33,129 bases of DNA from Spizellomyces punctatus DAOM BR117 (taxonomy: Eukaryota). The notes under the pieces were generated by a model. That model saw only the letters and a program-made list of their open reading frames with translations. It was not told where the DNA came from and searched no databases. The stretch lies in assembly GCA_000182565.2 (NCBI GenBank), contig KQ257469.1; one strand, written 5' to 3'. Made by a program: the position numbers and the translations under genes. Positions 1 to 30,700 of the stretch are shown one piece after another; position 1 is the first letter of the stretch; every line of letters starts with the position of its first letter.

Positions 1-1323
1 AAGTTTGCAACCATCAGGACGGTCCTGACACTAGCAGCCATGAAGGACATGGAGATTCACCAAATGGATGTCAAAACAGCATTCTTGAATGGGACCATTG
101 AGGAGGACATCTACATGGACCAACCAGAAGGCTTCACCACGGCAAATGGGCTTGTCTGCAAGCTGAAGAAGAGTTTGTACGGGCTAAAGCAAGCTCCAAG
201 AGCCTGGAACAAAGTCATTGACGGGCAACTCAAAGAACTTGGCTTTGAAAGGTGTGAATCAGACCACGGGCTGTACATCAACAAGAAGATGGGCATCCAC
301 CTTATCCTGTATGTGGATGACCTTATTCTGGCATCAAAGGACGACCAGGAGTTGTTAAAACTCAAAGAAGAACTCAAGAAGCAGTTCAAGATGGCTGATA
401 TGGGCCAGTTAGAGCATTTTCTCGGCATTCAAGTGGTCAGGGACAGAGCCAACAGGTCAATCTGGCTCTCCCAACAGCGGTACCTCGGTCAAACATTGAA
501 GAAATTCAACATGAGTAACAGCAAACCAGTTGCCACACCACTAGAGAATGGCCACAAGCTCACCAAGGCCATGTCACCACAAACTGAGGCAGAACAGCAA
601 GAAATGAATGGGGTTCCTTTCAGAAGTGCTGTTGGAAGTCTCATTTATGCAATGCTGGGCACCAGACCAGACATAGCAGCGGCAGTTGGATCAGTCAGCC
701 AGTACCTTTCCAACCCCGGACATCAGCACTGGATAGCAGTCAAACGGATCATGCGGTACCTGAATGGCACCACAGACCTAGGACTTCAACTGGGCGGCAT
801 TCAGAGCGAGTGGGAGCTATCTGCATACTCTGATGCAGATTGGGGCGGTGATTTGGACTTCAGGAAGTCTACCACTGGCTTCTTAGTCAAGATTGGCAGC
901 AGCACAGTCAGCTGGCAAAGCAAGAGGCAACCTACAGTCGCCCTATCATCAACAGAGTCAGAGTACATGGCTCTTTGTCAAGCTACCAAGGAAGTTATCT
1001 GGTTCAGAACACTTCTAGGCGAGCTAGGACATCAGCAAAGTGGTCCTACAACATTGTATGGTGACAATCAGGGTGCCATAGCACTTGCCAACAACCCAAC
1101 ACATCATGCAAGGACCAAACACATTGATGTGTGGCACCACTTCATCAGACAAGCAGTAGAAGACAAGAAAATCAGCCTCAAGTACTGTCAGACAGAAGAA
1201 ATGACGGCTGACATTCTCACCAAGGCCTTACCCAAGACAAAACACCTTAAACTTTGTGGTAAAATGGGTCTCTGTCGGAAATCAGATGATTCACTGAGTG
1301 GGAGTGTTGAGATTCAGGCTTAA
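1..1323 (+). CDS. copia pol, reverse transcriptase + RNase H (5'-partial); the last codons run into the LTR
   Basis: ORF 40..1323 extends upstream without a stop to the window edge; near-identical to the C-terminus of ORF 5835..9353(-). Confidence 0.95.
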   Translation, partial: KFATIRTVLTLAAMKDMEIHQMDVKTAFLNGTIEEDIYMDQPEGFTTANGLVCKLKKSLYGLKQAPRAWNKVIDGQLKELGFERCESDHGLYINKKMGIHLILYVDDLILASKDDQELLKLKEELKKQFKMADMGQLEHFLGIQVVRDRANRSIWLSQQRYLGQTLKKFNMSNSKPVATPLENGHKLTKAMSPQTEAEQQEMNGVPFRSAVGSLIYAMLGTRPDIAAAVGSVSQYLSNPGHQHWIAVKRIMRYLNGTTDLGLQLGGIQSEWELSAYSDADWGGDLDFRKSTTGFLVKIGSSTVSWQSKRQPTVALSSTESEYMALCQATKEVIWFRTLLGELGHQQSGPTTLYGDNQGAIALANNPTHHARTKHIDVWHHFIRQAVEDKKISLKYCQTEEMTADILTKALPKTKHLKLCGKMGLCRKSDDSLSGSVEIQA

Positions 1324-1817
1324 ACCACGCTGTATGATCTATAAATCATGTGAGATCATGCTGGGATGTCATTAGACAGTTCACATCTGATCTGGCTAAG
1401 TTACAACGTGGGGAATTGGACTTAGAGTAATCAGAATGATCACAGACGCGCGTGGGAATGATTTAAAGGGGTAAATCATCATGTAAGCACTCTTAGAAGG
1501 TCTGGAAGGTTTGTGACGATCTAGATCTTCAGGTAATGTGCGCCAAGGCATGGCTGAAGTTGCTGAGCACTGCTGAGCACGGCTGAGCATGTAAACAAGT
1601 GGGCTGAAGCATGTAAACAGCAAACAAAGGCAGAGGGAGGCTGGAGAATGTACTGGGTTATATAAAGGGGACTTTTGAATGTCTCTGGAGTAATATAAGC
1701 GTGTTATCCCACAAGTTACTGCACCCAGAAGTCTTACTAGCGACCACAGGCATTACTAGGCCTTTCAGAAGTGATTTCTACACGGGAAATCAGTGTTCCA
1801 AGCGCTAAGTTTCAATA
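1305..1817 (+). repeat. 3' LTR of copy A, 513 bp, TGTTGAGA...TTTCAATA
   Basis: Starts right after the PPT; same length and sequence family as 10018-10530; TATATAAA at 1659-1666. Confidence 0.95.
1561..1666 (+). promoter_or_regulatory. Putative LTR U3 enhancer/promoter: 3x GCTGAGCA at 10-bp period, 2x GCATGTAAACA, TATA box
   Basis: Motifs are read directly and recur in the other LTR copies; function is inferred from position. Confidence 0.55.
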
Positions 1818-2988
1818 CTTCTCCCTTTGGAAAGGGATGCCTGGTGATCTTTCCATGGCACAGGCTTCACATGGTGATGTTTCTGTGTGATTCTTGACCT
1901 CCACCCCGCTTCCCAGCTGGTTCCTAGCCAAGATTTTGATGCTNNNNNNNNNNNNNNNNNNNNNNNNNNNNNNNNNNNNNNNNNNNNNNNNNNNNNNNNN
2001 NNNNNNNNNNNNNNNNNNNNNNNNNNNNNNNNNNNNNNNNNNNNNNNNNNNNNNNNNNNNNNNNNNNNNNNNNNNNNNNNNNNNNNNNNNNNNNNNNNNN
2101 NNNNNNNNNNNNNNNNNNNNNNNNNNNNNNNNNNNNNNNNNNNNNNNNNNNAAGTTCTTTTCAAGCTTGGGAACAAACCACCACATCTCTGAGGGTACAG
2201 AATCGGTTTCTGCCTGTCTCAAGTGTGATCTGGCCCTTCCCTATTGCCTGAACTGTTCTGTTGTCCGCCAGATGGACTTGAATTGGTGACATCTCCATGT
2301 AATTGGTCATCCAATCCTTCCTGTGTGACATGTGCTGTGAGGCACCCGAGTCCACAATCCACCAGACTGCTCCCTGAGAGGTTTTGGTGTCATCTCCCGA
2401 CTGAGCAAAGAATAGGAACTCATTCTGAGTTGCCTGACTGGTGCTGGCTTGATTGGCTTGTTGTTTGGTGTCCGCCAGAAACTTCCTGCAGTCCTTCTTG
2501 AAGTGACCCTTCTTGTTGCAATAGAAGCACTTCCCTGCTATCTTCTTGATCCCACCATGCTTGCCAACCTTCTGCCCACCATCCCTGCTGAAAAAGGCCT
2601 TCCCTTTGCTATCTCCTTCACCCCCAGCTTCCTTCCTGCGTGTTTCTTCATGCAAAAGCCGTGATGTGAGGAATTCCAGCATCAGAGAATCACTCCTGGC
2701 CTCCAAAGACACCACCAGCTGTTCATAACTCTCTGGTAGGCTGTAGAGTAGGGTGATGACTTGGTCTTCTTCACTGACTGGCGCCCCAATGGCCTCCAAC
2801 TGCTGAGCCATTGTCCTGACCGTGTTTATGTGTCCCAACATGCCCCCAGTGCCATCTTCCATCTTCAGAGTGAGAAATTTCCTCCTTAGATAGAGCCTAC
2901 TGGCAATTCCCTTCCTTTGGTGGACGTCACTGAGCTTTAACCAGGCCTCCTTTGCAGTTACAGCGGTCTGTACATGCATGAGTTGGGC
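1818..2988 (-). pseudogene. copia gag-protease-pre-integrase fragment (copy D), interrupted by copy A, frameshifted, contains gap 1944-2151
   Basis: CFYCNKKGHFKKDC zinc knuckle and WIVDSGASQHM protease motif; 1-bp deletion near 1856 (CTTTCCATGGC versus CTTTCCAATGGC in other copies). Confidence 0.9.
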
Positions 2989-3706
2989 CCTTTATATAAC
3001 CCAGTCCTCNNNNNNNNNNNNNNNNNNNNNNNNNNNNNNNNNNNNNNNNNNNNNNNNNNNNNNNNNNNNNNNNNNNNNNNNNNNNNNNNNNNNNNNNNNN
3101 NNNNNNNNNNNNNNNNNNNNNNNNNNNNNNNNNNNNNNNNNNNNNNNNNNNNNNNNNNNNNNNNNNNNNNNNNNNNNNNNNNNNNNNNNNNNNNNNNNNN
3201 NNNNNNNNNNNNNNNNNNNNNNNNNNNNNNNNNNNNNNNNNNNNNNNNNNNNNNNNNNNNNNNNNNNNNNNNNNNNNNNNNNNNNNNNNNNNNNNNNNNN
3301 NNNNNNNNNNNNNNNNNNNNNNNNNNNNNNNNNNNNNNNNNNNNNNNNNNNNNNNNNNNNNNNNNNNNNNNNNNNNNNNNNNNNNNNNNNNNNNNNNNNN
3401 NNNNNNNNNNNNNNNNNNNNNNNNNNNNNNNNNNNNNNNNNNNNNNNNNNNNNNNNNNNNNNNNNNNNNNNNNNNNNNNNNNNNNNNNNNNNNNNNNNNN
3501 NNNNNNNNNNNNNNNNNNNNNNNNNNNNNNNNNNNNNNNNNNNNNNNNNNNNNNNNNNNNNNNNNNNNNNNNNNNNNNNNNNNNNNNNNNNNNNNNNNNN
3601 NNNNNNNNNNNNNNNNNNNNNNNNNNNNNNNNNNNNNNNNNNNNNNNNNNNNNNNNNNNNNNNNNNNNNNNNNNNNNNNNNNNNNNNNNNNNNNNNNNNN
3701 NNNNNN

Positions 3707-5018
3707 CCCTTCTGTTTGCAGAATTTCTTGAATTCTTCGCCCACATACTCTCCCCCATTGTCTGATCTGAGAGTTTTGATCTTCTGCCCCGTGAAGTTGG
3801 TTGCCCAGGCCTCAAACTCCTTGAATTTGCTGAGAACCTCACTCTTCTCCTTCAGAAGATAAACTGCCGTCATCCTTGACTTGTCATCAATGAATGTGAC
3901 AAAGTACTTTGCCCCACCATGACTTGGTGTCTTCATGGGCCCACACACATCACTGTGAACCACCCCCAGCAATAGAGCCACTCTAGCTGCTTCTCCCTTT
4001 GGAAAGGGATGCCTGGTGATCTTTCCAATGGCACAGGCTTCACATGGTGATGTTTCTGTGTGATTCTTGACCTCCAGACCGCTTCCCAGCTGGTTCCTAG
4101 CCAAGATTTTGATGCTGTTGACATTCAGGTGTCCTAACCTGCGATGCCAGAGGTCCAAACTCATTCCAGAGGCTATGTTTGCATGTTCTCTTGCATGAAA
4201 CATGTATAGACCGCCCCCTAGAGTTCCCTGGATTGCTTCCTGGCCATCTGAAGTCTTGATACAGCATCCCTTGCTGCCAAACTCAACTTTGGCACCATTT
4301 TCAGTGGCTCTTCTTACTGAAAACAAGTTCTTTTCAAGCTTGGGAACAAACCACACGTCTCTGAGGGTACAGAATCGGTTTCTGCCTGTCTCAAGTGTGA
4401 TCTGGCCCTTCCCTATTGCCTGAACTGTTCTGTTGTCTGCCAGATGGACTTGAATTGGTGACATCTCCATGTAATTGGTCATCCAATCCTTCCTGTGTGA
4501 CATGTGCTGTGAAGCACCCGAGTCCACAATCCACCAGACTGCTCCCTGAGAGGTTTTGGTGTCATCTCCCGACTGAGCAAAGAATAGGAACTCATTCTGA
4601 GTTGCCTGACTGGTGCTGGCTTGATTGGCTTGTTGTTTGGTGTCCGCCAGAAACTTCCTGCAGTCCTTCTTGAAGTGACCCTTCTTGTTGCAATAGAAGC
4701 ACTTCCCTGCTATCTTCTTGGTCCCACCATGCTTGCCAACCTTCTGCCCACCATCCCTGCTGAAAAAGGCCTTCCCTTTGCTATCTCCTTCACCCCCAGC
4801 TTCCTTTCTGCGTGTTTCTTCATGCAAAAGCCGTGATGTGAGGAATTCCAGCGTCAGAGAATCACTCCTGGCCTCCAAAGACACCACCAGCTGTTCATAA
4901 CTCTCTGGTAGGCTGTAGAGTAGGGTGATGACTTGGTCTTCTTCACTGACTGGCGCCCCAATGGCCTCCAACTGCTGAGCCATTGTCCTGACCGTGTTTA
5001 TGTGTCCCAGCATGCCCC
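3707..5018 (-). mobile_element. copia gag-protease-integrase fragment (copy E) between assembly gaps, frame open throughout
   Basis: Zinc knuckle, DSGAS protease, WHRRLGH...CEAC zinc finger, and integrase core HSDVCGP / RSDNGGEY. Confidence 0.92.
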
Positions 5019-5504
5019 NNNNNNNNNNNNNNNNNNNNNNNNNNNNNNNNNNNNNNNNNNNNNNNNNNNNNNNNNNNNNNNNNNNNNNNNNNNNNNNNNN
5101 NNNNNNNNNNNNNNNNNNNNNNNNNNNNNNNNNNNNNNNNNNNNNNNNNNNNNNNNNNNNNNNNNNNNNNNNNNNNNNNNNNNNNNNNNNNNNNNNNNNN
5201 NNNNNNNNNNNNNNNNNNNNNNNNNNNNNNNNNNNNNNNNNNNNNNNNNNNNNNNNNNNNNNNNNNNNNNNNNNNNNNNNNNNNNNNNNNNNNNNNNNNN
5301 NNNNNNNNNNNNNNNNNNNNNNNNNNNNNNNNNNNNNNNNNNNNNNNNNNNNNNNNNNNNNNNNNNNNNNNNNNNNNNNNNNNNNNNNNNNNNNNNNNNN
5401 NNNNNNNNNNNNNNNNNNNNNNNNNNNNNNNNNNNNNNNNNNNNNNNNNNNNNNNNNNNNNNNNNNNNNNNNNNNNNNNNNNNNNNNNNNNNNNNNNNNN
5501 NNNN

Positions 5505-5853
5505 AGTACATTCTCCAGCCTCCCTCCGCCTTTGTTTACTGTTTACATGCTTCAGCCCACTTGTTTACATGCTCAGCCGTGCTCAGCAGTGCTCAGCAGC
5601 TTCAGCCATGCCTTGGCAAACATTACCTGAAGATCTAGATCATCACAAACCTTCCAGACCTTCTAAGAGTGCTTACATGATGATTTACCCCTTTAAATCA
5701 TTCCACACGCGTCTGTGATCATTCTGATTACTCGAAGTCCAATTCCCCACGTTGTAACTTAGCCAGATCAGATGTGAACTGTCTAATGACATCCCAGCAT
5801 GATCTCACATGATTTGTAGATCATACAGCGTGGTTTAAGCCTGAATCTCAACA
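5505..5853 (-). repeat. 3' LTR of copy B (partial, truncated by gap)
   Basis: Reverse complement of the LTR, ending ...GAATCTCAACA next to the PPT complement CTCCCACTC. Confidence 0.93.
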
Positions 5854-8800
5854 CTCCCACTCAGTGAATCATCTGATTTCTGACAGAGTCCCATTTTACC
5901 ACAAAGTTTAAGGTGTTTTGTCTTGGGTAGAGCCTTGGTGAGAATGTCAGCCATCACTTCTTCTGTCTGACAGTACTTGAGGCTGATTTTCTTGTCTTCT
6001 ACTGCTTGTCTGATGAAGTGGTGCCACACATCAATGTGTTTGGTCCTTGCATGATGTGTTGGGTTGTTGGCAAGTGCCATGGCGCCCTGATTGTCACCAT
6101 ACAATGTTGTAGGACCACTTTGTTGATGTCCTAGCTCGCCTAGAAGTGTTCTGAACCAGATAACTTCCTTGGTAGCTTGACAAAGAGCCATGTACTCTGA
6201 CTCTGTTGATGAAAGGGTGACTGTAGGTTGCCTCTTGCTTTGCCAGCTGACTGTGCTGCTGCCAATCTTGACTAAGAAGCCAGTGGTAGACTTCCTGAAG
6301 TCCAAGTCACCGCCCCAATCTGCATCAGAGTATGCAGACAGCTCCCACTTGCTCTGAATGCCGCCCAGTTGAAGTCCTAGGTCTGTGGTGCCATTCAGGT
6401 ACCGCATGATCCGTTTGACTGCTATCCAGTGCTGATGTCCGGGGTTGGAAAGGTACTGGCTAATTGATCCAACTGCTGCTGCTATGTCTGGTCTGGTGCC
6501 CAGCATTGCATAAATGAGACTTCCAACAGCACTTCTGAAAGGAACCCCATTCATTTCCTGCTGTTCTGCCTCAGTTTGTGGTGACATGGCCTTGGTGAGC
6601 TTCTGGCCATTCTCTAGTGGTGTGGCAACTGGTTTGCTGTTACTCATATTGAATTTCTTCAATGTTTGACCGAGGTATCGCTGTTGGGAGAGCCAGATTG
6701 ACCTGTTGGCTCTGTCCCTGACCACTTGGATGCCGAGAAAATGCTCTAACTGGCCCATATCAGCCATCTTGAACCGCTTCTTGAGTTCTTCTTTGAGTTT
6801 TAACAACTCCTGGTTGTCCTTTGATGCGAGAATAAGGTCATCCACATACAGGACAAGGTGGATGCCCATCTTCTTGTTGATGTACAGCCCATGGTCTGAT
6901 TCACACCTTTCAAAGCCAAGTTCTTTGAGTTGCCCATCAATGACTATGTTCCAGGCTCTTGGAGCTTGCTTTAACCCATACAAACTCTTCTTTAGCTTGC
7001 AGACAAGTCCTTTTGCCATGGCAAAGCCTTCTGGTTGGTCCATGTAGATGTCCTCCTCAATGGTCCCATTCAAGAATGCTGTTTTGACATCCATTTGGTG
7101 AATCTCCATGTCCTTCATGGCTGCTAGTGTGAGAACTGTCCTGATGGTTGCAAACTTGACTACTGGGGCAAATGTCTCCTTGTAGTCCAGTCCTTCAACT
7201 TGGGAGTATCCTTTGGCTACCAGTCTGGCCTTGTAGTGCTCTACAGAGCCATCTGACTTGAGTTTCAGCTTGAAAACCCACTTGCAGCCAACTGTGGATC
7301 TTCCTGGTGGTAGTTTGACTAAGTCCCATGTCTGATTCTCCATCAGAGAGTCATATTCTGCTTTGACAGCCGCCTCCCACTGTTTGGCATCATGTCTGGT
7401 CCTAGCTTCAGCCAGAGTGCTGGGTTCTTCCTGTGGAACTTCTCCAATGGTGAAGGCAAAAGCCAGATTTGACTGGGTTGGCTTTGCAATCCACCACTCT
7501 CCCGGTGGTTTGTGAAATCTGGCACTCTTCCTGCTGAGTTCTGGCACTTCCTCAACATCCTGGAAGTCGTCCCCATCATCTTCTGATGCTGAAGAGTTGT
7601 CTGGAGTGATGCTAGATGGTCTCTGAGTCTCTTGAACCGTCCCTAGCCCTTCTTGGTTGTCCAAGAATGAAGGCTCCCCTCCCAGAGGCATCTGTAGCTC
7701 TTGGTCTTGCTGTGGTACACTCTGCAGTCGCTGCTGAGTGCTCCACATCAAGTTTTCATCAAAGATGATGTCCCTTGACATGACAACTTGGTTCATTTCA
7801 GGTACCCACAGTCTGTAGGCCTTACTCTGAGTGCTGTAGCCGACCATGACTGCCTTCTTGGCCTTCTCATCAAGTTTTGACCGCTTTTCCTTTGGAATAT
7901 GAGTGTAGGCCACGCAGCCAAACACTCTGAGGTGCTGGAGATCTGGTTTACCGCCTGTAAACTCTTGAAATGGTGTTGATTGGTTGCTGAGTGCTGCAGT
8001 GGGGCTCCTGTTCCTGAGATAGGCCGCTGTCATGATTGCCTCGCCCCAGAACTTGTGGCTGAGTCCACTGTGGTGCAGCATGCACCTTCCCATTTCCACC
8101 AGCGTCCTGTTCATCCTCTCAGCAACACCATTCTGCTCTGGTGTGTAGGGGGTGCTGAATTGCTGCTGAATTCCCTTCTGTTTGCAGAATTTCTTGAATT
8201 CTTCGCCCACATACTCTCCCCCATTGTCTGATCTGAGAGTTTTGATCTTCTGCCCCGTGAAGTTGGTTGCCCAGGCCTCAAACTCCTTGAATTTGCTGAG
8301 AACCTCACTCTTCTCCTTCAGAAGATAAACTGCCGTCATCCTTGACTTGTCATCAATGAATGTGACAAAGTACTTTGCCCCACCATGACTTGGTGTCTTC
8401 ATGGGCCCACACACATCACTGTGAACCACCCCCAGCAGTAGAGCCGCTCTAGCTGCTTCTCCCTTTGGAAAGGGATGCCTGGTGATCTTTCCAATGGCAC
8501 AGGCTTCGCATGGTGATGTTTCTGTGTGACTCTTGACCTCCAGACCACTTCCCAGCTGGTTCCTAGCCAAGATTTTGATGCTGTTGACATTCAGGTGTCC
8601 TAACCTGCGATGCCAGAGGTCCAAACTCATTCCAGAGGCTATGTTTGCATGTTCTCTTGCATGAAACATGTATAGACCGCCCCCTAGAGTTCCCTGGATT
8701 GCTTCCTGGCCATCTGAAGTCTTGATACAGCATCCCTTGCTGCCAAACTCAACTTTGGCACCATTTTCAGTGGCTCTTCTTACTGAAAACAAGTTCTTTT

Positions 8801-9838
8801 CAAGCTTGGGAACAAACCACACGTCTCTGAGGGTACAGAATCGGTTTCTGCCTGTCTCAAGTGTGATCTGGCCCTTCCCTATTGCCTGAACTGTTCTGTT
8901 GTCCGCCAGATGGACTTGAATTGGTGACATCTCCGTGTAATTGGTCATCCAATCCTTCCTATGTGACATGTGCTGTGAGGCACCCGAGTCCACAATCCAC
9001 CAGACTGCTCCCTGAGAGGTTTTGGTGTCATCTCCTGACTGAGCAAAGAATAGGAACTCATTCTGAGTTGCCTGACTGGTGCTGGCTTGATTGGCTTGTT
9101 GTTTAGTGTCCGCCAGAAACTTCCTGCANNNNNNNNNNNNNNNNNNNNNNNNNNNNNNNNNNNNNNNNNNNNNNNNNNNNNNNNNNNNNNNNNNNNNNNN
9201 NNNNNNNNNNNNNNNNNNNNNNNNNNNNNNNNNNNNNNNNNNNNNNNNNNNNNNNNNNNNNNNNNNNNNNNNNNNNNNNNNNNNNNNNNNNNNNNNNNNN
9301 NNNNNNNNNNNNTCCAGAGTCAGAGAATCACTCCTGGCCTCCAAAGACACCACCAGCTGTTCATACTCTCTGGTAGGCTGTAGAGTAGGGTGATGACTTG
9401 GTCTTCTTCACTGACTGGCGCCCCAATGGCCTCCAACTGCTGAGCCATTGTCCTGACCGTGTTTATGTGTCCCAACATGCCCCCAGTGCCGTCTTCCATC
9501 TTCAGAGTGAGAAATTTCCTCCTTAGATAGAGCCTACTGGCAATTCCTTTCCTTTGGTGGACGTCACTGAGCTTTAACCAGGCCTCCTTTGCAGTTACAG
9601 CGGTCTGTACATGCATGAGTTGGGCATCACTCAGTGACAGAGCAATTACTGCCATTGCCCACTCATCCCTTCTCCTCCAATCCTTGTCAGAGGTTCCCTC
9701 CATGCTGTCATCTCCTTCAATCACACCCCACAGCCCCTTTTCCTTCAGCAACATTGTCATTTTGAACTTCCAGAGGTGGTAGTTCATGCCATTGAACTTT
9801 TCCATTGTGAGTTTGGTGTCCAAGTCCGTGTTTGACAT
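5835..9838 (-). pseudogene. copia gag-pol single-ORF polyprotein with a 1-bp frameshift near 9364 (real or sequencing error next to gap 9129-9312)
   Basis: ORFs 9320..9838 and 5835..9353 join into one polyprotein; TCATACTCTC here versus TCATAACTCTC in copies D and E. Confidence 0.9.
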
Positions 9839-10003
9839 GTCTGAGCTGATTTGGTGAGTGGATTTGTTGTTGGGGAAGAGGTGAAATCGTCCTAGTATGG
9901 TAGGTGGTCCAAATATGAGGTTGGGAAGAAGATAGGTCTGTCAGGAAGATGGTGTGGCGGTCGGAAAAGAGATTTGAAGCAGGAAAATATCAGTGATAGC
10001 TAT

Positions 10004-10017
10004 CAGGGCTCATAACC
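10004..10017 (-). other. Primer binding site GGTTATGAGCCCTG, complementary to the anticodon stem-loop of initiator tRNA-Met (half-tRNA priming as in Ty5 and Drosophila copia)
   Basis: Lies directly inside the 5' LTR; its complement CAGGGCTCATAACC is the fungal tRNA-iMet anticodon arm. Confidence 0.9.
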
Positions 10018-10530
10018 TATTGAAACTTAGCGCTTGGAACACTGATTTCCCATGTAGAAATCACTTCTGAAAGGCCTAGTAATGCCTGTGGCCGCTAGTA
10101 AGACTTCTGGGTGCAGTAACTTGTGGGATAACACGCTTGTATTAATCCAGAGACATTCAAAAGTCCCCTTTATATAACCCAGTATATTCTCCAGCCTCCC
10201 TCCGCCTTTGTTTACTGTTTACATGCTTCAGCCCACTTGTTTACATGCTCAGCCGTGCTCAGCAGTGCTCAGCAGCTTCAGCCATGCCTTGGCAAACATT
10301 ACCTGAAGATCTAGATCATCACAAACCTTCCAGACCTTCTAAGAGTGCTTACATGATGATTTACCCCTTTAAATCATTCACACACGCATCTGTGATCATT
10401 CTGGTTACTCTAAGTCCAATTCCCCACGTTGTAACTTAGCCAAATCAGATGTGAACTGTCTAATGACATCCCAGCATGATCTCACATGATTTATAGATCA
10501 TACAGCGTGGTTTAAGCCTGAATCTCAACA
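10018..10530 (-). repeat. 5' LTR of copy B, 513 bp
   Basis: Full reverse-complement match to 1305-1817 apart from SNPs. Confidence 0.96.
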
Positions 10531-11560
10531 GTTCTGCCTGAGAGCTTGCAGAACCTGCTTGAGGTGGTCCAGGTGGCCTTCTGGGGTCTTGGAGTAGATG
10601 AGGATATCATCTAGGTAGACAATGACAAAGATGTCCAAGAAGGGTCTTAGAACATCATTCATCAAAGTCATGAAAGTGGCTGGGGCATTGGTCATTCCAA
10701 AGGACATGACCAAGAACTCAAAGTGACCATATCTGGTTCTGAAAGCTGTCTTGGGGATGTCTTCTGGGTGGATCCTGATCTGGTAGTAGCCTGACTTGAG
10801 ATCCAGCTTGGTAAAGACCTGGGCTCCATTCAGTCTGTCCATCAGCTCATCAATCCTGGGGAGGGGATATCTGTTCTTGATGGTGATCTTGTTCAGAGCC
10901 CTGTAGTCCACACACATCCTCAAAGACCCTTCTTTCTTCTTGACAAAGAGGATGGGTGCTCCAAAGGGGCTCTTGGATGGTCTGATGTGGCCTGCCTCCA
11001 GAAGTTCAGACAGCTGCTTCCTCAGTTCTTCTAACTCCAAAGAAGAGAGGTGGTAGGTTGGTCTCCAGGGGGTCTGGTTGGGGTCACTGAGTTCAATTCT
11101 GTGATCCACTGTTCTCTCAGGGGGAAGTCCTGGGGGAAGCTCTTCAGCAAAGACATCTTGATAGTCTTCAAGAAGCTTGGTGACTTTGGAATCCATGGTG
11201 TCTGGAGGGGTGCTGGTATCTTGAGGGTTCTTGAAATACACAGCAAAAGCTGTTGCTGTCCTCTTCTTCAGGGTTCTGGCCAACATCTTTGCTGATACCA
11301 TGGTGATATTGGGTTCTGGCTTGGGGGTGGTAGGTGCTGGTACAGTGGTGGCAAACCACCTGACTCTAGGGTGCTGGGAGGTCTCAAAGGTGATGGTTCC
11401 CTTCTGGTAGTTGATACTGGGGTTCCTCCAAGCAAACCAGGGAACTCCCAAGATTATATCAAACTTCACAGGTGCCACTATGAAGTCAGATATCTCAGAG
11501 TAGGTGCAAACAGAGTACTGTAGGCTTTTAACAAAGCCAGTTCCTGGGTACTTCTTGTTG
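10531..11560 (-). mobile_element. Ty3/gypsy (Tf2/chromovirus-like) pol fragment: protease C-terminal half and RT up to just past YLDD, cut by the copy B LTR
   Basis: [61 protein letters not shown] and [10 protein letters not shown], with no stop in the frame. Confidence 0.95.
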
Positions 11561-11633
11561 CCTTCTTGGACATCTTTGTCATTGTCTACCTAGATGATAT
11601 CCTCATCTACTCCAAGACCCCAGAAGGCCACCT
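11561..11633 (+). repeat. 73-bp inverted duplication of gypsy RT segment 10571-10643 (covers YLDD)
   Basis: CCTTCTTGGACATC...GAAGGCCACCT is the exact reverse complement of 10571-10643. Confidence 0.93.
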
Positions 11634-11789
11634 TGGCAAAAACATTACCTGAAGATCTAGATCATCACAAACCTTCCAGACCTTCTAAGACTGCTTACAT
11701 GATGATTTACCCCTTTAAATCATTCCCACACGTGTCTGTGATCATTCTGATTATTCTAAGTCCAATTCCCCACGTTGTAACTTAGCCAA
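11631..11789 (-). repeat. Internal copia LTR fragment, inverted relative to the adjacent LTR
   Basis: Matches 10288-10443 with several SNPs and a small indel. Confidence 0.9.
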
Positions 11790-12186
11790 CTTAGAGTAAC
11801 CAGAATGATCACAGATGCGTGTGTGAATGATTTAAAGGGGTAAATCATCATGTAAGCACTCTTAGAAGGTCTGGAAGGTTTGTGATGATCTAGATCTTCA
11901 GGTAATGTTTGCCAAGGCATGGCTGAAGCTGCTGAGCACTGCTGAGCACGGCTGAGCATGTAAACAAGTGGGCTGAAGCATGTAAACAGTAAACAAAGGC
12001 GGAGGGAGGCTGGAGAATATACTGGGTTATATAAAGGGGACTTTTGAATGTCTCTGGATTAATACAAGCGTGTTATCCCACAAGTTACTGCACCCAGAAG
12101 TCTTACTAGCGGCCACAGGCATTACTAGGCCTTTCAGAAGTGATTTCTACATGGGAAATCAGTGTTCCAAGCGCTAAGTTTCAATA

Positions 12187-12200
12187 GGTTATGAGCCCTG
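12187..12200 (+). other. Primer binding site of copy C (half tRNA-iMet)
   Basis: GGTTATGAGCCCTG directly after the LTR. Confidence 0.9.
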
Positions 12201-12365
12201 ATAGCTATCACTGATATTTTCCTGCTTCAAATCTCTTTTCTGATGGCCACACCATCTTCCTGACGGACCTATCCTCTTCCCAACCTCATATTTGGACCAC
12301 CTACCATACTAGGACGATTTCACCTCTTCCCCAACAACAAATCCACTCACCAAATCAGCTCAGAC

Positions 12366-15300
12366 ATGTCAAACACGGACTTGGACACCAAACTCACAAT
12401 GGAAAAGTTCAATGGCATGAACTACCACCTCTGGAAGTTCAAAATGACAATGTTGCTGAAGGAAAAGGGGCTGTGGGGTGTGATTGAAGGAGATGACAGC
12501 ATGGAGGGAACCTCTGACAAGGATTGGAGGAGAAGGGATGAGCGGGCAATGGCAGTAATTGCTCTGTCACTGAGTGATGCCCAACTCATGCATGTACAGA
12601 CCGCTGTAACTGCAAAGGAGGCCTGGTTAAAGCTCAGTGACGTCCACCAAAGGAAGGGAATTGCCAGTAGGCTCTATCTAAGGAGGAAATTTCTCACTCT
12701 GAAGATGGAAGATGGCACTGGGGGCATGTTGGGACACATAAACACGGTCAGGACAATGGCTCAGCAGTTGGAGGCCATTGGGGCGCCAGTCAGTGAAGAA
12801 GACCAAGTCATCACCCTACTCTACAGCCTACCAGAGAGTTATGAACAGCTGGTGGTGTCTTTGGAGGCCAGGAGTGATTCTCTGATGCTGGAATTCCTCA
12901 CATCACGGCTTTTGCATGAAGAAACACGCAGGAAGGAAGCTGGGGGTGAAGGAGATAGCAAAGGGAAGGCCTTTTTCAGCAGGGATGGCGGGCAGAAGGT
13001 TGGCAAGCATGGTGGGATCAAGAAGATAGCAGGGAAGTGCTTCTATTGCAACAAGAAGGGTCACTTCAAGAAGGACTGCAGGAAGTTTCTGGCGGACACC
13101 AAACAACAAGCCAATCAAGCCAGCACCAGTCAGGCAACTCAGAATGAGTTCCTATTCTTTGCTCAGTCGGGAGATGACACCAAAACCTCTCAGGGAGCAG
13201 TCTGGTGGATTGTGGACTCGGGTGCCTCACAGCACATGTCACACAGGAAGGATTGGATGACCAATTACATGGAGATGTCACCAATTCAAGTCCATCTGGC
13301 AGACAACAGAACAGTTCAGGCAATAGGGAAGGGCCAGATCACACTTGAGACAGGCAGAAACCGATTCTGTACCCTCAGAGACGTGTGGTTTGTTCCCAAG
13401 CTTGAAAAGAACTTGTTTTCAGTAAGAAGAGCCACTGAAAACGGTGCCAAAGTTGAGTTTGGCAGCAAGGGATGCTGTATCAAGACTTCAGACGGTCAGG
13501 AAGCAATCCAGGGAACTCTAGGCGGCGGTCTATACATGTTTCATGCAAGAGAACATGCAAACATAGCCTCTGGAATGAGTGTGGACCTCTGGCATCGCAG
13601 GTTAGGACACCTGAACGTCAACAGCATCAAAATCTTGGCTAGGAACCAGCTGGGAAGCAGGGTGGAGGTCAAGAATCACACAGAAACATCACCATGTGAA
13701 GCCTGTGCCATGGAAAGATCACCAGGCATCCCTTTCCAAAGGGAGAAGCAGCTAGAGCGGCTCTATTGCTGGGGGTGGTTCACAGTGATGTGTGTGGGCC
13801 CATGAAGACACCAAGTCATGGTGGGGCAAAGTATTTTGTCACATTCATTGATGACAAGTCAAGGATGACAGCAGTTTATCATTTGAAGGAGAAGAGTGAG
13901 GTTCTCAGCAAATTCAAGGAGTTTGAGGCCTGGGCAACCAACTTCACGGGGCAGAAGATCAAAACTCTCAGATCAGACAATGGGGGAGAGTATGTGGGCG
14001 AAGAATTCAAGAAATTCTGCAAACAGAAGGGAATTCAGCAGCAATTCAGCACCCCCTACACACCAGAGCAGAATGGTGTTGCTGAGAGGATGAACAGGAC
14101 GCTGGTGGAAATGGGAAGGTGCATGCTGCACCACAGTGGACTCAGCCACAAGTTCTGGGGCGAGGCAATCATGACAGCGGCCTATCTCAGGAACAGGAGC
14201 CCCACTGCAGCACTCAGCAACCAATCAACACCATTTCAAGAGTTTACAGGCGGTAAACCAGATCTCCAGCACCTCAGAGTGTTTGGCTGCGTGGCCTACA
14301 CTCATATTCCAAAGGAAAAGCGGTCAAAACTTGATGAGAAGGCCAAGAAGGCAGTCATGGTCGGCTACAGCACTCAGAGTAAGGCCTACAGACTGTGGGT
14401 ACCTGAAATGAACCAAGTTGTCATGTCAAGGGACATCATCTTTGATGAAAACTTGATGTGGAGCACTCAGCAGCGACTGCAGAGTGTACCACAGCAAGAC
14501 CAAGAGCTACAGATGCCTCTGGGAGGGGAGCCTTCATTCTTGGACAACCAAGAAGGGCTAGGGACGGTTCAAGAGACTCAGAGACCATCTAGCATCACTC
14601 CAGACAACTCTTCAGCATCAGAAGATGATGGGGACGACTTCCAGGATGTTGAGGAAGTGCCAGAACTCAGCAGGAAGAGTGCCAGATTTCACAAACCACC
14701 GGGAGAGTGGTGGATTGCAAAGCCAACCCAGTCAAATCTGGCTTTTGCCTTCACCATTGGGGAAGTTCCACAGGAAGAACCCAGCACTCTGGCTGAAGCT
14801 AGGACCAGACATGATGCCAAACAGTGGGAGGTGGCTGTCAAAGCAGAATATGACTCTCTGATGGAGAATCAGACGTGGGACTTGGTCAAACTACCACCAG
14901 GAAGATCCACAGTTGGCTGCAAGTGGGTTTTCAAGCTGAAACTCAAGTCAGATGGCTCTGTAGAGCGCTACAAGGCCAGACTGGTAGCCAAAGGATACTC
15001 CCAAGTTGAAGGACTGGACTACAAGGAGACATTTGCCCCAGTAGTCAAGTTTGCAACCATCAGGACGGTTCTGACACTAGCAGCCATGAAGGACATGGAG
15101 ATTCACCAAATGGATGTCAAAACAGCATTCTTGAATGGGACCATTGAGGAGGACATCTACATGGACCAACCAGAAGGCTTTGCCACGGCAAAAGGACTTG
15201 TCTGCAAGCTAAAGAAGAGTTTTGTATGGGTTAAAGCAAGCTCCAAGAGCCTGGAACAAAGTCATTGATGGGCAACTCAAAGAACTTGGCTTTGAAAGGT

Positions 15301-15826
15301 GTGAATCAGACCACGGGCTGTACATCAACAAGAAGATGGGCATCCCACCTTGTCCTGTATGTGGATGACCTTATTCTCGCATCAAAGGACAACCAGGAGT
15401 TGTTAAAACTCAAAGAAGAACTCAAGAAGCGGTTCAAGATGGCTGATATGGGCCAGTTAGAGCATTTTCTCGGCATCCAAGTGGTCAGGGACAGAGCCAA
15501 CAGGTCAATCTGGCTCTCCCAACAGCGGTACCTCGGTCAAACATTGAAGAAATTCAATATGAGCAACAGCAAACCAGTTGCCACACCACTAGAGAATGGC
15601 CAGCAGCTCACCAAGGCCATGTCACCACAAACTGAGGCAGAACAGCAAGAAATGAATGGGGTTCCTTTCAGAAGTGCTGTTGGAAGTCTCATTTATGCAA
15701 TGCTGGGCACCAGACCAGACATAGCAGCAGCAGTTGGATCAGTTAGCCAGTACCTTTCCAACCCTGGACATCAGCACTGGATAGCAGTCAAATGGATCAT
15801 GTGGTACCTGAATGGCACCACAAACA
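12366..15826 (+). pseudogene. copia gag-pol with three frameshifts (about 13710, 15220 and 15345) and a 3' truncation
   Basis: ORFs 12366..13805, 13766..15268 and 15265..15879 tile the copy B polyprotein; 1-bp indels are visible against copies A and B. Confidence 0.92.
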
Positions 15827-16579
15827 TATTGAAACTTAGTGCTTGGAACACTGATTTCCCACATAGAAATCACCTCTGAAAGGCGTAGTAATGGCTGTGA
15901 CTGCTAGTAAGACTTCCGGGTGCAGTAACTTGTAGGATAACACACTTGTATTAATCCTGAGATGTTCAAAAGTCCCCTTTATATAACCCAGTACATTCTC
16001 CAGCCTCCCTCCACCTTTGTTTACTGTTTGCATGCTTCAGCCCACTTGTTTACATGCTCAGCCATGCTCAGCAATGCTCAGCAGCTTCAGCCCACTTGTT
16101 TACATGCCCAGCCATGCCCAGCCATGCTCAGCAATGCTCAGCAGCTTCAGTAATGCCTTGGCAAACATTACCTGAAGATCTAGACCATCACAAACCCAGA
16201 GATGTTCAAAAGTCCCCCTTATATAACCCAGTACATTCTCCAGCCTCCCTCCACCTTTGTTTACTGTTTGCATGCTTCAGCCCACTTGTTTACATGCTCA
16301 GCCATGCTCAGCAATGCTCAGCAGCTTCAGCCATGCCTTGGCAAACATTACCTGAAGATCTAGATCACCACAAACCTTCCAGACCTTCTAAGAGTGCTTA
16401 CATGATGATTTACCCCTTTAAATCATTCACACACGCATCTGTGATCATTCTGGTTACTCTAAGTCCAATTCCCCACATTGTAACTTAGCCAAATCAGATG
16501 TGAACTGTCTAATGACATCCCAACATGATCTCACATGATTTATAGATCATACAGTGTGATTTAAGCCTGAATCTCAACA
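15827..16579 (-). repeat. Solo copia LTR, 753 bp, with a 240-bp internal duplication of the enhancer/TATA region
   Basis: Ends are TATTGAAAC (15827) and ATCTCAACA (16579). GAGATGTTCAAAAGTCC occurs at 15959 and 16199. No PBS, PPT or matching target-site duplication. Confidence 0.92.
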
Positions 16580-16659
16580 TAACTGCCTGTATGTTGTCCA
16601 GACTTTTCCAGAAGATAAACAAGAGCAAACAAGAGCATCATTCTCCAGGCCAACAAGAT

Positions 16660-16775
16660 GGATGACAGCAGATGTCTCACTAAGGCATTGCCTAAAGTCA
16701 AGCACCTCAAATCTTGTGGTATAATAAGCCTATGCATTCACACTTGTGATTCCCTGAGTTGGAGTGTTGAAGATT
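16660..16775 (+). pseudogene. Old diverged copia RNase H end, PPT and start of an LTR (TGTTGA at 16765)
   Basis: LTKALPKVKHLKSCG...DSLSWSVE versus LTKALPKTKHLKLCG...DSLSGSVE in copy A. Confidence 0.8.
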
Positions 16776-16971
16776 ATGCTGGAAAGCTTGGTGCATCAAA
16801 TTGCAGTTCACACCCATGGGTTAGGGTTAGAGCAGCTGTGGCATATGGGTCAACTGAAAAAATTGGTACTCTGTAGGCTTCATCATGAAAATTGTTAGAT
16901 ATTAGTAAACAGATCATTAAGAGTTGCAGATATATTAGTAATGAACTGTTTCAGGGTACATGCCAGGAGGA

Positions 16972-17160
16972 TTGGATCAGGTCATGAGGTCAGGATCCTC
17001 AAACAAGAGTTGGACTGGGTCCTAGATCAGGGAACTAGAATAATGTAACTGGATCAGAGAACTAGAACTAGTTACTAGATTGGAGAACTAAAATCAGGAA
17101 GCTAGAATCAGAAACCAAGATCAGGTAGCCAAATCATGCATCTGGCTGTGGGAACTAGTG
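16972..17160. repeat. Degenerate short tandem repeat (GATCAG/GAACTA units, roughly 12-nt scale)
   Basis: Recurrent GATCAG(G/A) and GAACTAG motifs. Confidence 0.45.
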
Positions 17161-17697
17161 AAGGGAACTGAATGGGTATTTAGGTTAGAGAACCATAGTT
17201 AGGGGTGCCATTATGAAGTAAATCAGTTATTAAAGAAGTATGCATCAATGTCCTGGAATAAGAAAGAGGTGTCAAGTGCAAAAATTACAGAAAAACCCCA
17301 TAGCTATCACCTGACTTTCTACCCCTGTATCTTTGTGAAAATACCATACAAAATAAGGAACAGAGTACTTGGGAATCTCAAGTTTTCTGACACCACAGGA
17401 CATCATATCATATAGGATCATTTACCATGGCAGACAATAGTAGTGTTTGATGTGTTTCCAGTATGAGAAGAGCAACTTCTAAGTTTGCTTTTGCTTTGGT
17501 AGTATCCACCAGCAATAAGAAAGTACTGTCAATAAAATATATATTTATACTAGTTCTGTTGGCAAGTTCCTTGGCAGAACACTTTATCAAAACTGTAGTT
17601 CTATGGTTGCTGGGCAATGGATAATGCCTCCTAAGCTACATAATTAGGCTGGCTACTGGTAATTACTCTGTATCTCTTCTGCTTTTAACTATAATAT

Positions 17698-18053
17698 TGT
17701 TGAGACTTTAATATAATGGCAGTATGTAATTTATAAATTATATGGGAGCATGCTGGTATATTATCAAGCAGTTTACATCTGGTTTGGTTAAGTCAGAACA
17801 TGAGGGAAAATGGACTTTAAAGTTATTCCTGCACATGTCTGTTCTGAAGTACTTGAATAATAGATCCTCCTATAAGCAGCATTAGAAAGCATAAGGAGGT
17901 CTGGGGTGGCAGAGATGTTCAGGTAATGTTTGCCAAGGTATTGCTGAAGCTGCTGACCATGGCTGAGTATGGCTGAAGAATATAAGCAATTGGCTAAAGT
18001 ATGGAAACCATAAACAAAGGTTGGGGGAGGCTGGAGTATGCACTGGGCTATTA
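17698..18053 (+). repeat. Old, AT-shifted relic LTR of the same copia lineage, truncated near the TATA box
   Basis: Starts TGTTGAGA and is collinear with 1305-1660 (e.g. TTCAGGTAATGTTTGCCAAGG, AAACAAAGG...GGAGGCTGGAG). Confidence 0.85.
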
Positions 18054-18450
18054 CTGAATTCATGTTATGCCATTCTGCTTAATTTATAAGGTAATCCTTT
18101 ATATTTAAGTTACAACTATATTTATCTAAGTATAGCTCCATGTTGGTAAGAATAAAAATAAAAGATATAATATAGGTCTTATATGTATTATAAAATATAT
18201 GGTAATAATATCTAATCAATACTGTGGGTCAGGTGGGGTTATCTGCCAAAATACAGTTTTGTCCTCAATTTTCTAAATGGAGTGGGCCTAAGCAGATGGG
18301 CTCTGTAATCCAACCATGCCCCAGTCAGGTGATTAGATGACATTACCAGTATGTCAGGATGTCGAATAGCATGGAGCCGACATTTGATAACCGCCTGATA
18401 ACCGTCAGATTGCGTCTCAGTGACATGACCACATTTCCTTCCAATATTGC

Positions 18451-21400
18451 ATGCAGCTGGTTGAGAGTCTGTGGTTGAATCCGACCTGATCTACAATTCT
18501 GGGAACTGACGTCCTCTGTTCGAAGGGAGTTTCTGGATATCTAATGCGTACTAAACCTGAAGATAGTCTACGGGAGCGACTCAGCCAGGCAAAGACGTAT
18601 GCGGAATGGGAAATGATAGCGGCCGATCTTGATATGTGAGTCGGAGGAAGGCGTATATCCATATAATCTTGGTATGAGCGCTAATAGTACATCAGAATAC
18701 TAGGTCCGATGATCATATGACGCTGAGAAACTTATAGTCGTGTTGATTCTCATATGTCTACAGGAAACGATGTGTGGAAGGCAGACGCTACCTCCAACAT
18801 CTACGACTATAAATTAATTCAGTTCAGATTGGAGCATCTGGCGGAAGTTCGGGATAGCGGAGACGTTGCAGAATTAATTTACTTGCTCCGATCAGGTACC
18901 TTTCTTTACTTTTCGTGATAGACGAAATGATTGGAAGAAATTATGGCCATTCACCGTCGTTCGGTGCAGGGCTTCTTCGGAATCTCGGCGGTATTGGCGA
19001 CCCACGATTGTTTTCTCGATCATACTTAGGGTAGTGCCCAGCGAAGGAATTCTCACAGCATTTTTGAACTGAACGAGTACAATAGGACAAAGAGTCTGAT
19101 TGAGGATTATCTGAACCAAGTTGTAACGCAGCTGCAGTACATTCAGCGTAACGATTTTGAGGTGCTCAGTCCTCAACAAAAAGTGGAATTTTTTCATGAT
19201 ACCCGTCAGAGCTTTGGAAATACAGCATTGCTACTGGAAGGAGGGGCAACATTTGGTCAGGGCCATCAGCGACGATCCAACTGCCGCTACCACTTACTGA
19301 CTAGAAAAATAATATTTAGGATTGTTTCACCTAGGTGTGGTCAAAGCTCTAAGCGAACATCACCTTCTTCCTCGGATCATCAGTGGATCATCTGTCGGGG
19401 CGTTGATTGCGGCTTTAGTCTGCGTCCATACTGAACAGGACTTACCGGTGAGAGCACATGAGATGTTTGGACAGCCAGGCACCGTAGTCATCGTCATTCC
19501 GCAGTGTATCTTTCAACCGGGCGGGATCAACTTGAAAGCGTTCGCTAAGAAAGGAATCAAAGGCAACATCACCCGTAAAATCACCCGACTTCTGAAATAT
19601 GGTGGGTGAACAGTCGAGCTCACTCTCATCGACCAAAATGGCTGATATGAGATCATTTCTGCCAGGGTACTTGATGGTACGAACCGGTATCTTCTTGCAT
19701 GCAAACCCGTAGTGATACGGCGAGTTTATTTGGTTTCATAAAGGATGTGAAGGTCCTGGAGGATTGTGTCCGTAGTAATGTGGGAGTGAGTCACCTCAGC
19801 AGACATAAAGCTAACTGAGCGAGCGACATAAAATTAAGATTATTGAATGCCCACGCAGGATCTGACATTTGGTATGATTTAGTCGCCTCAGCCGTATGGC
19901 TAGCCCTAATGGTCTCCACTTCAGAGGAGGCGTATGCGCGCAGCAAACGGGTGTTGAACATCACGTTAGTGTCCGGCGTCCCAACTTTGTGTCCACAAGC
20001 TCATCTTGTGATCACCGACAGTGTCGCATCCACACGGAAGTATGAGGTACCGCGACTTTTGAATTACCTGACTGCACCAAATGTGGTGAGTGGTGATAAA
20101 CAGAACGCGCGGAACCAGGGCGTCTTGGAATACTGATCTTGAATTCTTTGCCCACAGTTAATTTGGAGTGCAGCATGCGCATCAGGTTGGCTGTTCAGTA
20201 GCTGAGACGCTTGGAGGGACACTAAACTCAGTATTGCCAGCGGCTGTCATGGGTCTCTACGAGTCGGTCGATCTACTGGCAAAGGATAATTACGGTAACA
20301 TTGGTAATGCTCTATGACCAGCGACAGTAGCAATACTTGTCAGGCTGGCCTTTCAACGCGCATCACCTGGTATCATTTCAAAATTATCTGACTTCTGACT
20401 GGCTGTTGTCTGGTTTGTCTTTCTACAGTGCATTGGAGCCCAAGTGGTGAGTTCAACTGCTCTCAATGGACGTCTAGTTAGATATTTACGTAGATGAGTA
20501 GCCATCAGTTGGAGCGACTCTTCTTGCGAAAGGTACTTTCAGCTGACCCTTACAGTCGCCATGGGTACTTTGAGCTTACTTGCGGCTTAATGAGCAAGTG
20601 ATTCTCCGGAAATAAGACTCGCTGGTACACTACTGTGACTTCGCATATTTAAGGGTTGTGCCTTGTCTTCTAACCAGCATATTGCTTTAGAACAGGTGCG
20701 TACTGTACGCATTTAGGGGAAAACACCATCTCGCTGGCTTACCTAGACCTTCTGCCAGTTCAATGTGAATCACTTCATACTATCACAAGGTGGAGGAGCG
20801 CGGGCTCAGCAACTCCGTAAAATGCGGCTAACACATGAATTCTTACTAAATTTGAGCATCTAGCCAACCCATATATTGCACCTTTCCTATCGAAATGCCC
20901 ACAGGGACAAGGTGACAGTCTCTCAGATAAGCTGTTCATCTTTCTGTCTTCCGAAATTCGACATCGCTTACACCAGGTGTGTGCCGACATTCTTTCTTTG
21001 TGCCGTCTGATTACTAATCTCAATGCCCTAGTTGGCGCAAATTGGCCTGATGCCCCGAACGCTGCAAACACTTTTCGAACAGAGAGCTCAAGGTCATATT
21101 ACGATAGGTAAGTTGGGGACCAACAGTTGTCTGGACACTGCCTGCGTCTCATTTGAACTCTTTGTAGCCCCTCCTTTGAGTTCAATGGTCGGCTTGCTTT
21201 GATTTCATCCGAAAGCCACCTTCCGTTTTGTAACTTTCTCTATCTCTGGCAGGATTTCTACCAGCTTTTTTCGAACCCCACATACGGTAGGGCAACTTAT
21301 CGTATTACAGTCTTCATTACTTTATCGTCTTAGGCAAGCAACTATTCCCTAGCTTCCTTGAACTATTGGATCTTAAAGGGAGAACAGTCGACATGGCCTT

Positions 21401-27958: not shown

Positions 27959-28916
27959 TTAACTGGTCATCCGCGTCACCTAGAGGAAAAACTTCAGTAT
28001 ATCACCCTATTCCACAAAACCTACTGACAACATTCAATAGATATATACCTTATCCAACACAGTGTCGTGACTAACTTCAGACAGATCGGTGCACTGAATT
28101 TCGGTGTAGATACCATCAAGCTTTTTCCTCAAAGCGTCCTTGCTAGCTGCGTACAACATCTTCTGCTTGATTTTCGACGTGTCCGGCGACCTAAGAAAAA
28201 GAACGACCCGACATCAACCCCGAATTGAGATGACCGTCTGCTAGAGGGGCCAATGAAAATATCTTTAACCCACTTACCACACGTAGAAGAGGATTTTGTT
28301 CCTAATTCCCTCTCCAGCCGTGTCGTACTGGAAGTCATACACGCAGTAGCGGCACTGATCTGCTGGCAGGGATGCTACAAAGTCTTCGTAGTCAGCACTT
28401 TCCACAGTCTTTTCCACCACGATTTCGGTATTGTTGTCGTTGATCTTGTAAATGATATAGCGGTACTTCTTCTTCAACTTTAGCTCCTGGAATGCCTCCA
28501 CGGCACTATCCTGAACTCCCACTCCGCTGGACTACAGCAATAAACAAGACGGTTAGAGGCCCAGTATCGGCAAACGTGCATTTCCCTATCGCCGAGGCTG
28601 GTTCCAGTATACGATAAGTCCAAATCCAATCTCCGTTATTTCCGGGTTCAATTTTCCCATTCCCATGAAGACCATCTTGGCGCGTCAAGATGGTCATGTC
28701 ACTTTGACATTGAGAGTCGCCAATTGTTGCCTGCATCACTCTCATCCACCTGTCGCATAGGATGGATGGATGGATGCCCTTGGATGGCTTAGATGTCTTC
28801 AAGTTGTCCGGAGAGATGCCTCCAGCGCGCTTGACGCCATCCACGATGGCCGTGGCCATGATCGCTCAATTTACCAACTCTGATGTTCCTTCTCATATGT
28901 TACCTTTACTCACCAT
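27959..28916 (-). CDS. COF1: Cofilin/actin-depolymerizing factor; exons 28914-28916 (ATG only), 28278-28531, about 28049-28190 and 27959-27979
   Basis: M|SSGVGVQDSAVEAFQELKLKKKYRYIIYKI...CRYCVYDFQY...RNKILFYVW|SPDTSKIKQKMLYAASKDALRKKLDGI...EIQCTD, with canonical splice sites. Confidence 0.96.
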
Positions 28917-30546: not shown

Positions 30547-30562
30547 TGGTGGAGAAGCACGA
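30547..30562 (+). other. Putative PBS TGGTGGAGAAGCACGA, like the complement of a tRNA-Ala 3' end
   Basis: Starts with TGG right after ...TTACA; ...UCUCCACCA is a typical tRNA-Ala acceptor end. Confidence 0.6.
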
Positions 30563-30700
30563 CGAACTGCCTTCCCCTCTCAAATTCAGCTGAAAACCTT
30601 ATTCAGTCATACCGAAACTCTTGCGCAAACCAAGATCCACTCAGGTAGCTACTCAGAAACCTTTTCTCTCATTTCGGAAACAGACTTCACAAAACCAAGA

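Follow-up and report, generated by a model that had tools for sequence, protein, structure and literature searches.

A fragment of a Ty3/gypsy pol gene within a 33,129-nt stretch of DNA from Spizellomyces punctatus DAOM BR117, hereafter the window, contains not a single CpG dinucleotide and retains an open reading frame with its conserved arginines in place. We propose that this state probably results from CpG decay directed at transposable elements (TEs) and filtered by purifying selection on a gypsy lineage that was still active, and that the copy in the window was truncated afterwards.

The initial annotation had described about 1.1 kb of roughly half G+C without a CG dinucleotide, and a recount agrees: base composition predicts 65.0 CpG between positions 10531 and 11633 (1103 nt, G+C 0.489), where there are 0, together with 39 GpC. 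The CpGs that bound the CpG-free run lie at 10506/7 and 11731/2, which gives it a length of 1225 nt and makes it the second longest CpG-free run in the window, after that at 16435-18362. Chance as the cause of the zero count is ruled out by shuffling. Shuffling the single nucleotides of the 1029-nt coding piece 10,000 times gave a mean of 60.4 CpGs and a minimum of 40; in 10,000 synonymous-codon shuffles, which keep both the protein and the codon usage, the mean was 29.2 (sd 3.3) and the minimum 16. Measured against the synonymous shuffles, the products of deamination are in excess in the fragment (TG, 73 vs 59.7 +/- 2.9; CA, 99 vs 81.6 +/- 3.5) and TA is scarce (32 vs 45.7 +/- 3.1). Even at the observed/expected ratio (o/e) of the neighbouring copia, 0.2, at which ~13 CpG would be expected, the probability of finding none in the fragment is 2e-6.

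The minus-strand ORF at 10525..11589 runs for 354 codons without a stop and matches the Pfam family RVT_1 (E 7.4e-34, profile positions 1-179 of 205). Its translation contains the catalytic motif YLDD, of the YxDD type, and the conserved motifs quoted earlier, among them AFRTRYG, were located in it. Pfam matches no protease domain in the fragment; the part preceding the reverse transcriptase (RT) can be aligned, at 97-100% coverage, with the region of relatives that bears the protease (PF08284/PF13975). The limits of the fragment were drawn from the translation, Pfam, the codon analysis and the contigs of the family, which diverge beyond 10531 and 11560. Accordingly, the extent first given for the gypsy sequence, 10531-11633, holds for 10531-11560 (343 codons), whereas 11561-11633 is an inverted duplicate.

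The absence of CpG is written into the codons. All 20 arginines in the 354-codon frame use AGR (11 AGA and 9 AGG), TCG, CCG, ACG and GCG do not occur, and there are 0 C|G junctions between codons against ~34 expected, with 127 of 355 codons ending in C and 95 starting with G. The base before a G-starting codon is T (38), A (37) or G (19), and never C. The claims that the frame is free of stops, that the conserved arginines are kept and that all of them are AGA or AGG are thus borne out. Two further features of the fragment are a low TpA (o/e 0.48) and an enrichment of CWG (o/e about 1.9).

Surroundings of the fragment

From the order of the flanks at 10530 and past 11560, the gypsy fragment lies between two head-to-head copia copies (Table 1). 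On one side, three copies of the copia LTR align as far as 10530 and then diverge, and the last codons of the 354-codon ORF, together with its stop, lie inside this LTR. On the other side, the first 10 codons of the ORF derive from the 73-nt inverted duplicate and constitute a false N-terminus. Contigs of other gypsy copies differ from the window past 10531, where the 30 letters shown read as a continuation of the RT in our own translation, and they part from the window sequence at 11560; the loose-end consensus of the family beyond 10531 and beyond 11560 (30 nt each) contains no CpG. Among the contig pieces listed, none bridges junction 10530/31 or junction 11560/61; positions 11603-11907 have no contig cover in runs X1 and X2, which counts neither way. 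The window is a gapped draft assembly with four N runs, and the head-to-head copia/gypsy arrangement may reflect genuine nesting by insertion together with rearrangement, or an assembly join. The CpG count is unaffected by this uncertainty.

Neither the RNase H, integrase and chromodomain nor the gag and LTR of the gypsy family were found anywhere in the window. A tblastn search for other gypsy pieces in the window, with 109 ORFs of 80 relatives, gave nothing beyond weak cross-hits to the integrase and gag of copia. Flanking LTRs of gypsy were not found either, the only flanking repeats being copia LTR pieces and the 73-nt inverted self-duplicate. The gypsy copy in the window is a dead, truncated remnant.

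Several further observations concern the local arrangement. At the join between the inverted duplicate and the LTR piece (11561-11640), a few bases (CCTT) are common to both partners, a pattern that template switching, joining by microhomology or a chimera formed in amplification would be expected to leave. The copia arms at 9365-10415 and 11789-12839 are 99% complementary, and after the plus-strand copia comes an oppositely oriented LTR at 15823-16579. In this LTR copy an 84-nt segment is repeated at 180-nt spacing (16113-16376), a tandem duplication absent from the other LTR copies. Additional copia pieces at 1-5018 are broken up by the four N runs. The copia arrangement over 5835-16579 may be a real nest, or the product of mis-scaffolding or of a chimeric join.

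Table 1. Positions of the gypsy fragment and of other features in the window
Feature	Coordinates	Strand	Description
Copia coding region	5835..9940	minus	gag 9320-9940, pol 5835-9407 (1190 open codons); CpG o/e 0.19
5' LTR of minus-strand copia	10014..10530	minus	terminus ...AACA at 10530 abuts and truncates gypsy RT
Entire CpG-free run	10507..11731		from CpG position list; takes in last 24 nt of copia LTR, inverted duplicate and duplicated LTR piece
Ty3/gypsy pol fragment	10531..11560	minus	probable C-terminal end of protease region, and RT to just past YLDD; 343 open codons
Perfect 73-nt inverted duplicate	11561..11633	plus	reverse complement of 10571-10643 (YLDD region), 100%
Copy of copia LTR piece	11640..11795		direct, 95% to 10294-10449 (156 nt); then plus-strand copia LTR, inverted, from 11789
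Second copia	12264..15879	plus	head to head with first, 97-99% identical; three frame pieces; CpG o/e 0.21
CpG-free run	16435..18362		1.9 kb, G+C 0.38; non-coding copia-like debris; TpA o/e 0.96
Host gene region	18364..30000		genes with introns; CpG o/e 0.93 (normal)
Patatin-like phospholipase exon	19313-19609
Vps52 exons	about 24600-26534		Protein Atlas agrees with Vps52
Cofilin exon	28274-28531	minus

Copies and relatives of the gypsy family

Variant gypsy copies, mostly 90-99% identical to the window, are present in two runs of the organism itself (X1 and X2) and in a run from another sample and study (X10). Inside the fragment, the 35 differences listed between these copies and the window comprise 27 synonymous and 8 nonsynonymous changes, with a pN/pS among the copies of 0.085 (binomial P 9e-12); only one of the 35 creates a CpG, and this is a low-depth W>S change. 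Contigs of other runs, X10 included, cover 720 nt at ~96% identity, with no CpG-creating difference among those listed, and a 172-nt gypsy piece of 96.5% identity is present in X15, a run whose kind is guessed to be RNA.

More distant relatives are not CpG-free. Among 80 related RT loci from metagenomes, none lacks CpG; the lowest count is 5 (o/e 0.12), some are CpG-poor (o/e 0.12-0.35), and the median o/e is about 0.85. In the nearest of them, L050, 113 of 153 RT residues are identical to those of the window and the CpG o/e is 1.2. All 35 of its CpG-bearing codon contexts are CpG-free in the window gypsy, and seven conserved arginines that L050 encodes by CGN are AGR in the window. A close copy at the family level was found in none of the protein databases, metagenome contigs (best 74%, RT only) and viral contigs, and a 31-nt exact word retrieved no copy of the gypsy family from prokaryote genome contigs. 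In the protein databases the best full-coverage identity was 56% in a near-length search and 64% among longer proteins, with taxonomically mixed top matches. One of the best long relatives, P0170, is 64% identical across 100% of the query and has the Pfam families of RT, RNase H, integrase and chromodomain, and relatives at 50-64% identity bear the chromodomain PF00385.

Because the differences among copies are mostly synonymous and only one of the 35 listed creates a CpG, and because L050 is CpG-rich, these alignments indicate that the CpG-free state is derived and common to the gypsy family, having arisen under purifying selection on the protein. Its family-wide extent is read from the contig differences, since the window holds only 1.03 kb of the family. 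The earlier proposal that this lineage lost its CpGs under purifying selection accords with the AGR-only arginines, the missing C|G junctions, the mostly synonymous differences and the CpG-rich L050.

The same contigs bear on the idea that the zero count is an artefact, produced by chance or by errors of the assembly consensus at methylated CpG. The four N runs of the draft and the two junctions that no listed contig piece bridges speak for such an artefact, but it is close to refuted: (i) the shuffles rule out chance, (ii) errors from CG to TG or CA would give Cys, Trp, stop, His or Gln, whereas the conserved arginines are intact as AGR, and (iii) independent contigs, including those of X10, agree with the window.

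CpG decay in the resident transposons

The minus-strand copia, which has Pfam matches to RVT_2, rve and Retrotran_gag_2 among others, shows the same trend of CpG loss in a less advanced form. Its ORF uses 46 AGR and 8 CGN codons for arginine, and has 17 CpGs at codon junctions vs 88 expected. With copia at an o/e of 0.2 and with long open frames, the contrast between gypsy and copia is one of degree, not of kind. The decay can be followed between copia copies, where 57 of 162 differences are exchanges between CpG and TpG or CpA (20 of 50 in four non-overlapping segments of one pair). Since CpG makes up only about 2-3% of the bases, CpG sites in copia change ~25 times faster than other sites, a per-site ratio for which some of the repeat pairs compared overlap and the assembly is a draft with gaps. 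Among the CpGs that survive in 1-16433 (177), TCG occurs at 0.52 of expectation, vs 1.08 in the gene region, in this one window; the shortfall could possibly reflect a context bias of CpG loss, as in hypermutation of the Microbotryum type. Classical RIP of the Neurospora type, which converts CpA to TpA and enriches TpA, is rejected, the TpA o/e being 0.48 in gypsy and 0.38-0.40 in copia.

Other parts of the window differ in their CpG content. In the run at 16435-18362, about 75 CpG would be expected (from 1-kb bins) and 0 are present; it holds an LTR end, a 32-residue remnant of copia pol at ~16676-16771 and an inverted LTR at ~17719-18051 that is 70-80% diverged. A gag-like frame at 30473-32317 on the plus strand, with a zinc-knuckle-like CKFCQKKRHW, has 43 CpG vs 110 expected, and its 298-aa piece is without a Pfam match. 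The initial annotation had cited stops in the copia copies and in this gag as marks of decay; the gag-like element does have three in-frame TGA codons (at 30728, 30992 and 31418), whereas one copia copy is open over its whole pol frame. In the host gene region CpG is at its normal frequency. The best matches of the cofilin exon there are 74-76% identical, and the named ones are from the chytrids Rhizophlyctis rosea and Thoreauomyces humboldtii; this one exon makes a chytrid host probable.

Selection at the RNA level or on translation, through avoidance of dinucleotides in the transcript, could in principle have removed CpG independently of DNA methylation. CpG and UpA suppression occurs in RNA viruses and retroviruses, and the scarcity of TpA beside that of CpG in the gypsy fragment, below the level of the synonymous shuffles, would fit such a process. 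ZAP, the known CpG-sensing RNA restriction factor, is a vertebrate protein. We regard selection on the RNA as very improbable, given that: (i) host genes, at a CpG o/e of 0.93, offer no host-wide avoidance to be mimicked, (ii) non-coding TE debris is CpG-free at a TpA o/e close to 1, and (iii) CpG transitions are in excess between copia copies at the level of DNA.

The gypsy family might instead have come by horizontal transfer from a strongly CpG-depleted donor, in which the CpG-free state had been acquired. No close relative is present in the protein databases, the top matches there are of mixed taxonomy, and certain of the metagenomic relatives are CpG-poor, all of which this origin would account for. 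Against it, gypsy and the resident copia have a common dinucleotide profile (low CpG, low TpA and CWG at about 1.9), CpG hypermutation is visibly acting in the host genome, several diverged gypsy sublineages are present that differ mainly at synonymous sites, and the nearest relative is rich in CpG. A transfer of this kind seems to us quite unlikely, if slightly less so than selection on the RNA.

Passive decay of a dead copy is ruled out by the intact frame and the conserved arginines. We return to decay of an active lineage under selection as the preferred explanation. While it was active, the gypsy family would have resided for a long time in a genome where CpG sites of TEs mutate ~25 times faster, the likeliest cause being deamination of 5-methylcytosine (5mC) at CpG methylation targeted to TEs. 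Synonymous losses of CpG (NNC|G to NNT|G, NCG to NCH) would be fixed freely, and copies whose CGN arginines decayed to TGN or CAN would die. As a lethal liability, CGN would thus be replaced in surviving lineages by way of rare C-to-A changes, and lineages with their arginines so shifted to AGR would alone keep transposing. The outcome would be a coding sequence without CpG that specifies an unchanged protein. The copy in the window would afterwards have been cut within the RT by the insertion of copia, and at its opposite end by a rearrangement or an assembly join.

Methylation as the cause and the long residence of the family are what we infer from this pattern. In one report, 5mC of the chytrid Spizellomyces punctatus is described as limited to its transposons (PMC12695648), and CpG-type C-to-T signatures are documented in fungal TEs in two others (PMC4352252, PMC3318451). 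A review describes 5mC in early-diverging fungi as near-undetectable overall (PMC13297926), which counts against a strong effect of methylation unless methylation is restricted to TEs.

A rough calculation with copia-derived rates puts the equilibrium number of CpGs at 2.3 for the gypsy fragment, with a probability of about 0.10 of finding none, and at 3.9 for the run at 16435-18362, with a probability of 0.02. With an equilibrium of only ~2.3 CpG, the zero in gypsy needs no special adaptation; in view of the lower value for the debris, CpG may be lost faster than estimated, or another factor may contribute. The suggestion of recoding to evade methylation, which implies adaptation, is consequently not supported as it was stated, since mutation pressure and purifying selection suffice. 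As for the idea that the lineage may be largely invisible to CpG methylation, silencing can also take other routes.

Adaptation would have taken the form of a counter-defence, in which CpG-free lineages were favoured because they escape CpG methylation, CpG-directed hypermutation or both. Several observations point that way: the purge is complete in gypsy and the co-resident copia is still at an o/e of 0.2; the arginines are now AGR, which deamination cannot produce; and both CpG-free runs stand at exactly zero, which the passive estimate makes somewhat improbable. There is also a precedent in the LTR of ONSEN, which is free of CG and CHG (PMC3907296). Nevertheless, the passive equilibrium already permits zero, and the run at 16435-18362 is non-coding debris and as such incapable of adapting. 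Moreover, the gypsy contigs are covered to a depth of only about 7-25 and the copia LTR to one of about 95, which gives no sign of the CpG-free family being more successful than copia, contig depth being a poor measure of copy number. An evolved counter-defence therefore appears unlikely to us. A bolder reading, which we put forward tentatively and give only slightly more weight, is that a CpG-directed defence (TE methylation with fast deamination, or active hypermutation of repeats) lets only CpG-free retrotransposon lineages persist. Gypsy would then be defence-proof and selected for mutational robustness, and copia would be a younger invader on the same path.

The fragment shows the extent that CpG decay can reach in a functional mobile element: no CpG at all, every arginine AGR and the protein unchanged. 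It also provides evidence, from sequence only, that an early-diverging fungus imposes ~25-fold CpG hypermutation on its transposons and not on its genes, and such confinement to TEs bears on the debate about the importance of 5mC in chytrids. Should CpG-free families prove less methylated and longer-lived, this would be a case in which a transposon escapes a defence through the loss of the sites that the defence targets.

Comparison with known systems

With an RT that carries YLDD, the fragment resembles Ty3/gypsy elements (Metaviridae), those related to it being chromovirus-like, and differs from them in that the copy in the window is only a piece made up of the protease end and the RT. Vertebrate retroviruses and retroelements show a host-like suppression of CpG, in a host genome that is itself CpG-poor and with a contribution from an RNA sensor. 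The gypsy family shares with them a CpG-poor coding sequence and a CpG-avoiding choice of codons under purifying selection; here, however, only the TEs are depleted, and CpG in the host genes is normal (o/e 0.93).

A closer parallel is the decay of CpG in fungal TEs. A CpG-type C-to-T signature is reported in TEs of Tuber melanosporum, Microbotryum, Puccinia and Melampsora (PMC4352252, PMC3318451, PMC4165359). As in these fungi, the loss here is specific to TEs, the genes are CpG-normal, exchanges between CpG and TpG or CpA are in excess between copies (57/162), and there is no CpA-to-TpA signature of RIP (TpA o/e 0.4-0.5). The decay described in those fungi inactivates the copies, whereas here the loss is complete in a coding sequence that was kept functional (pN/pS 0.085). 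The fragment is thus an extreme example of a known process, the decay of CpG in methylated TEs filtered by selection, in an unusual host. We found no such analysis of TEs for chytrids, and the word 'chytrid' is absent from PMC4352252. Among the titles listed in a literature search, none describes a CpG-free retrotransposon lineage under purifying selection, which is weak evidence that such a case is unpublished; TE-by-TE tables of CpG in the supplements of PMC4352252 or PMC12695648 could hold comparable cases.

Finally, the gypsy family invites comparison with ONSEN. In both, a retrotransposon sequence is devoid of symmetric sites for maintenance methylation, which for ONSEN has been considered as a means of getting past silencing. 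The sequence that lacks these sites is the promoter/LTR, about 440 bp in length, in ONSEN, but 1 kb of pol coding sequence in the gypsy family; CWG is enriched in the gypsy fragment (o/e 1.9) rather than avoided, and the host and its methylation machinery are different.
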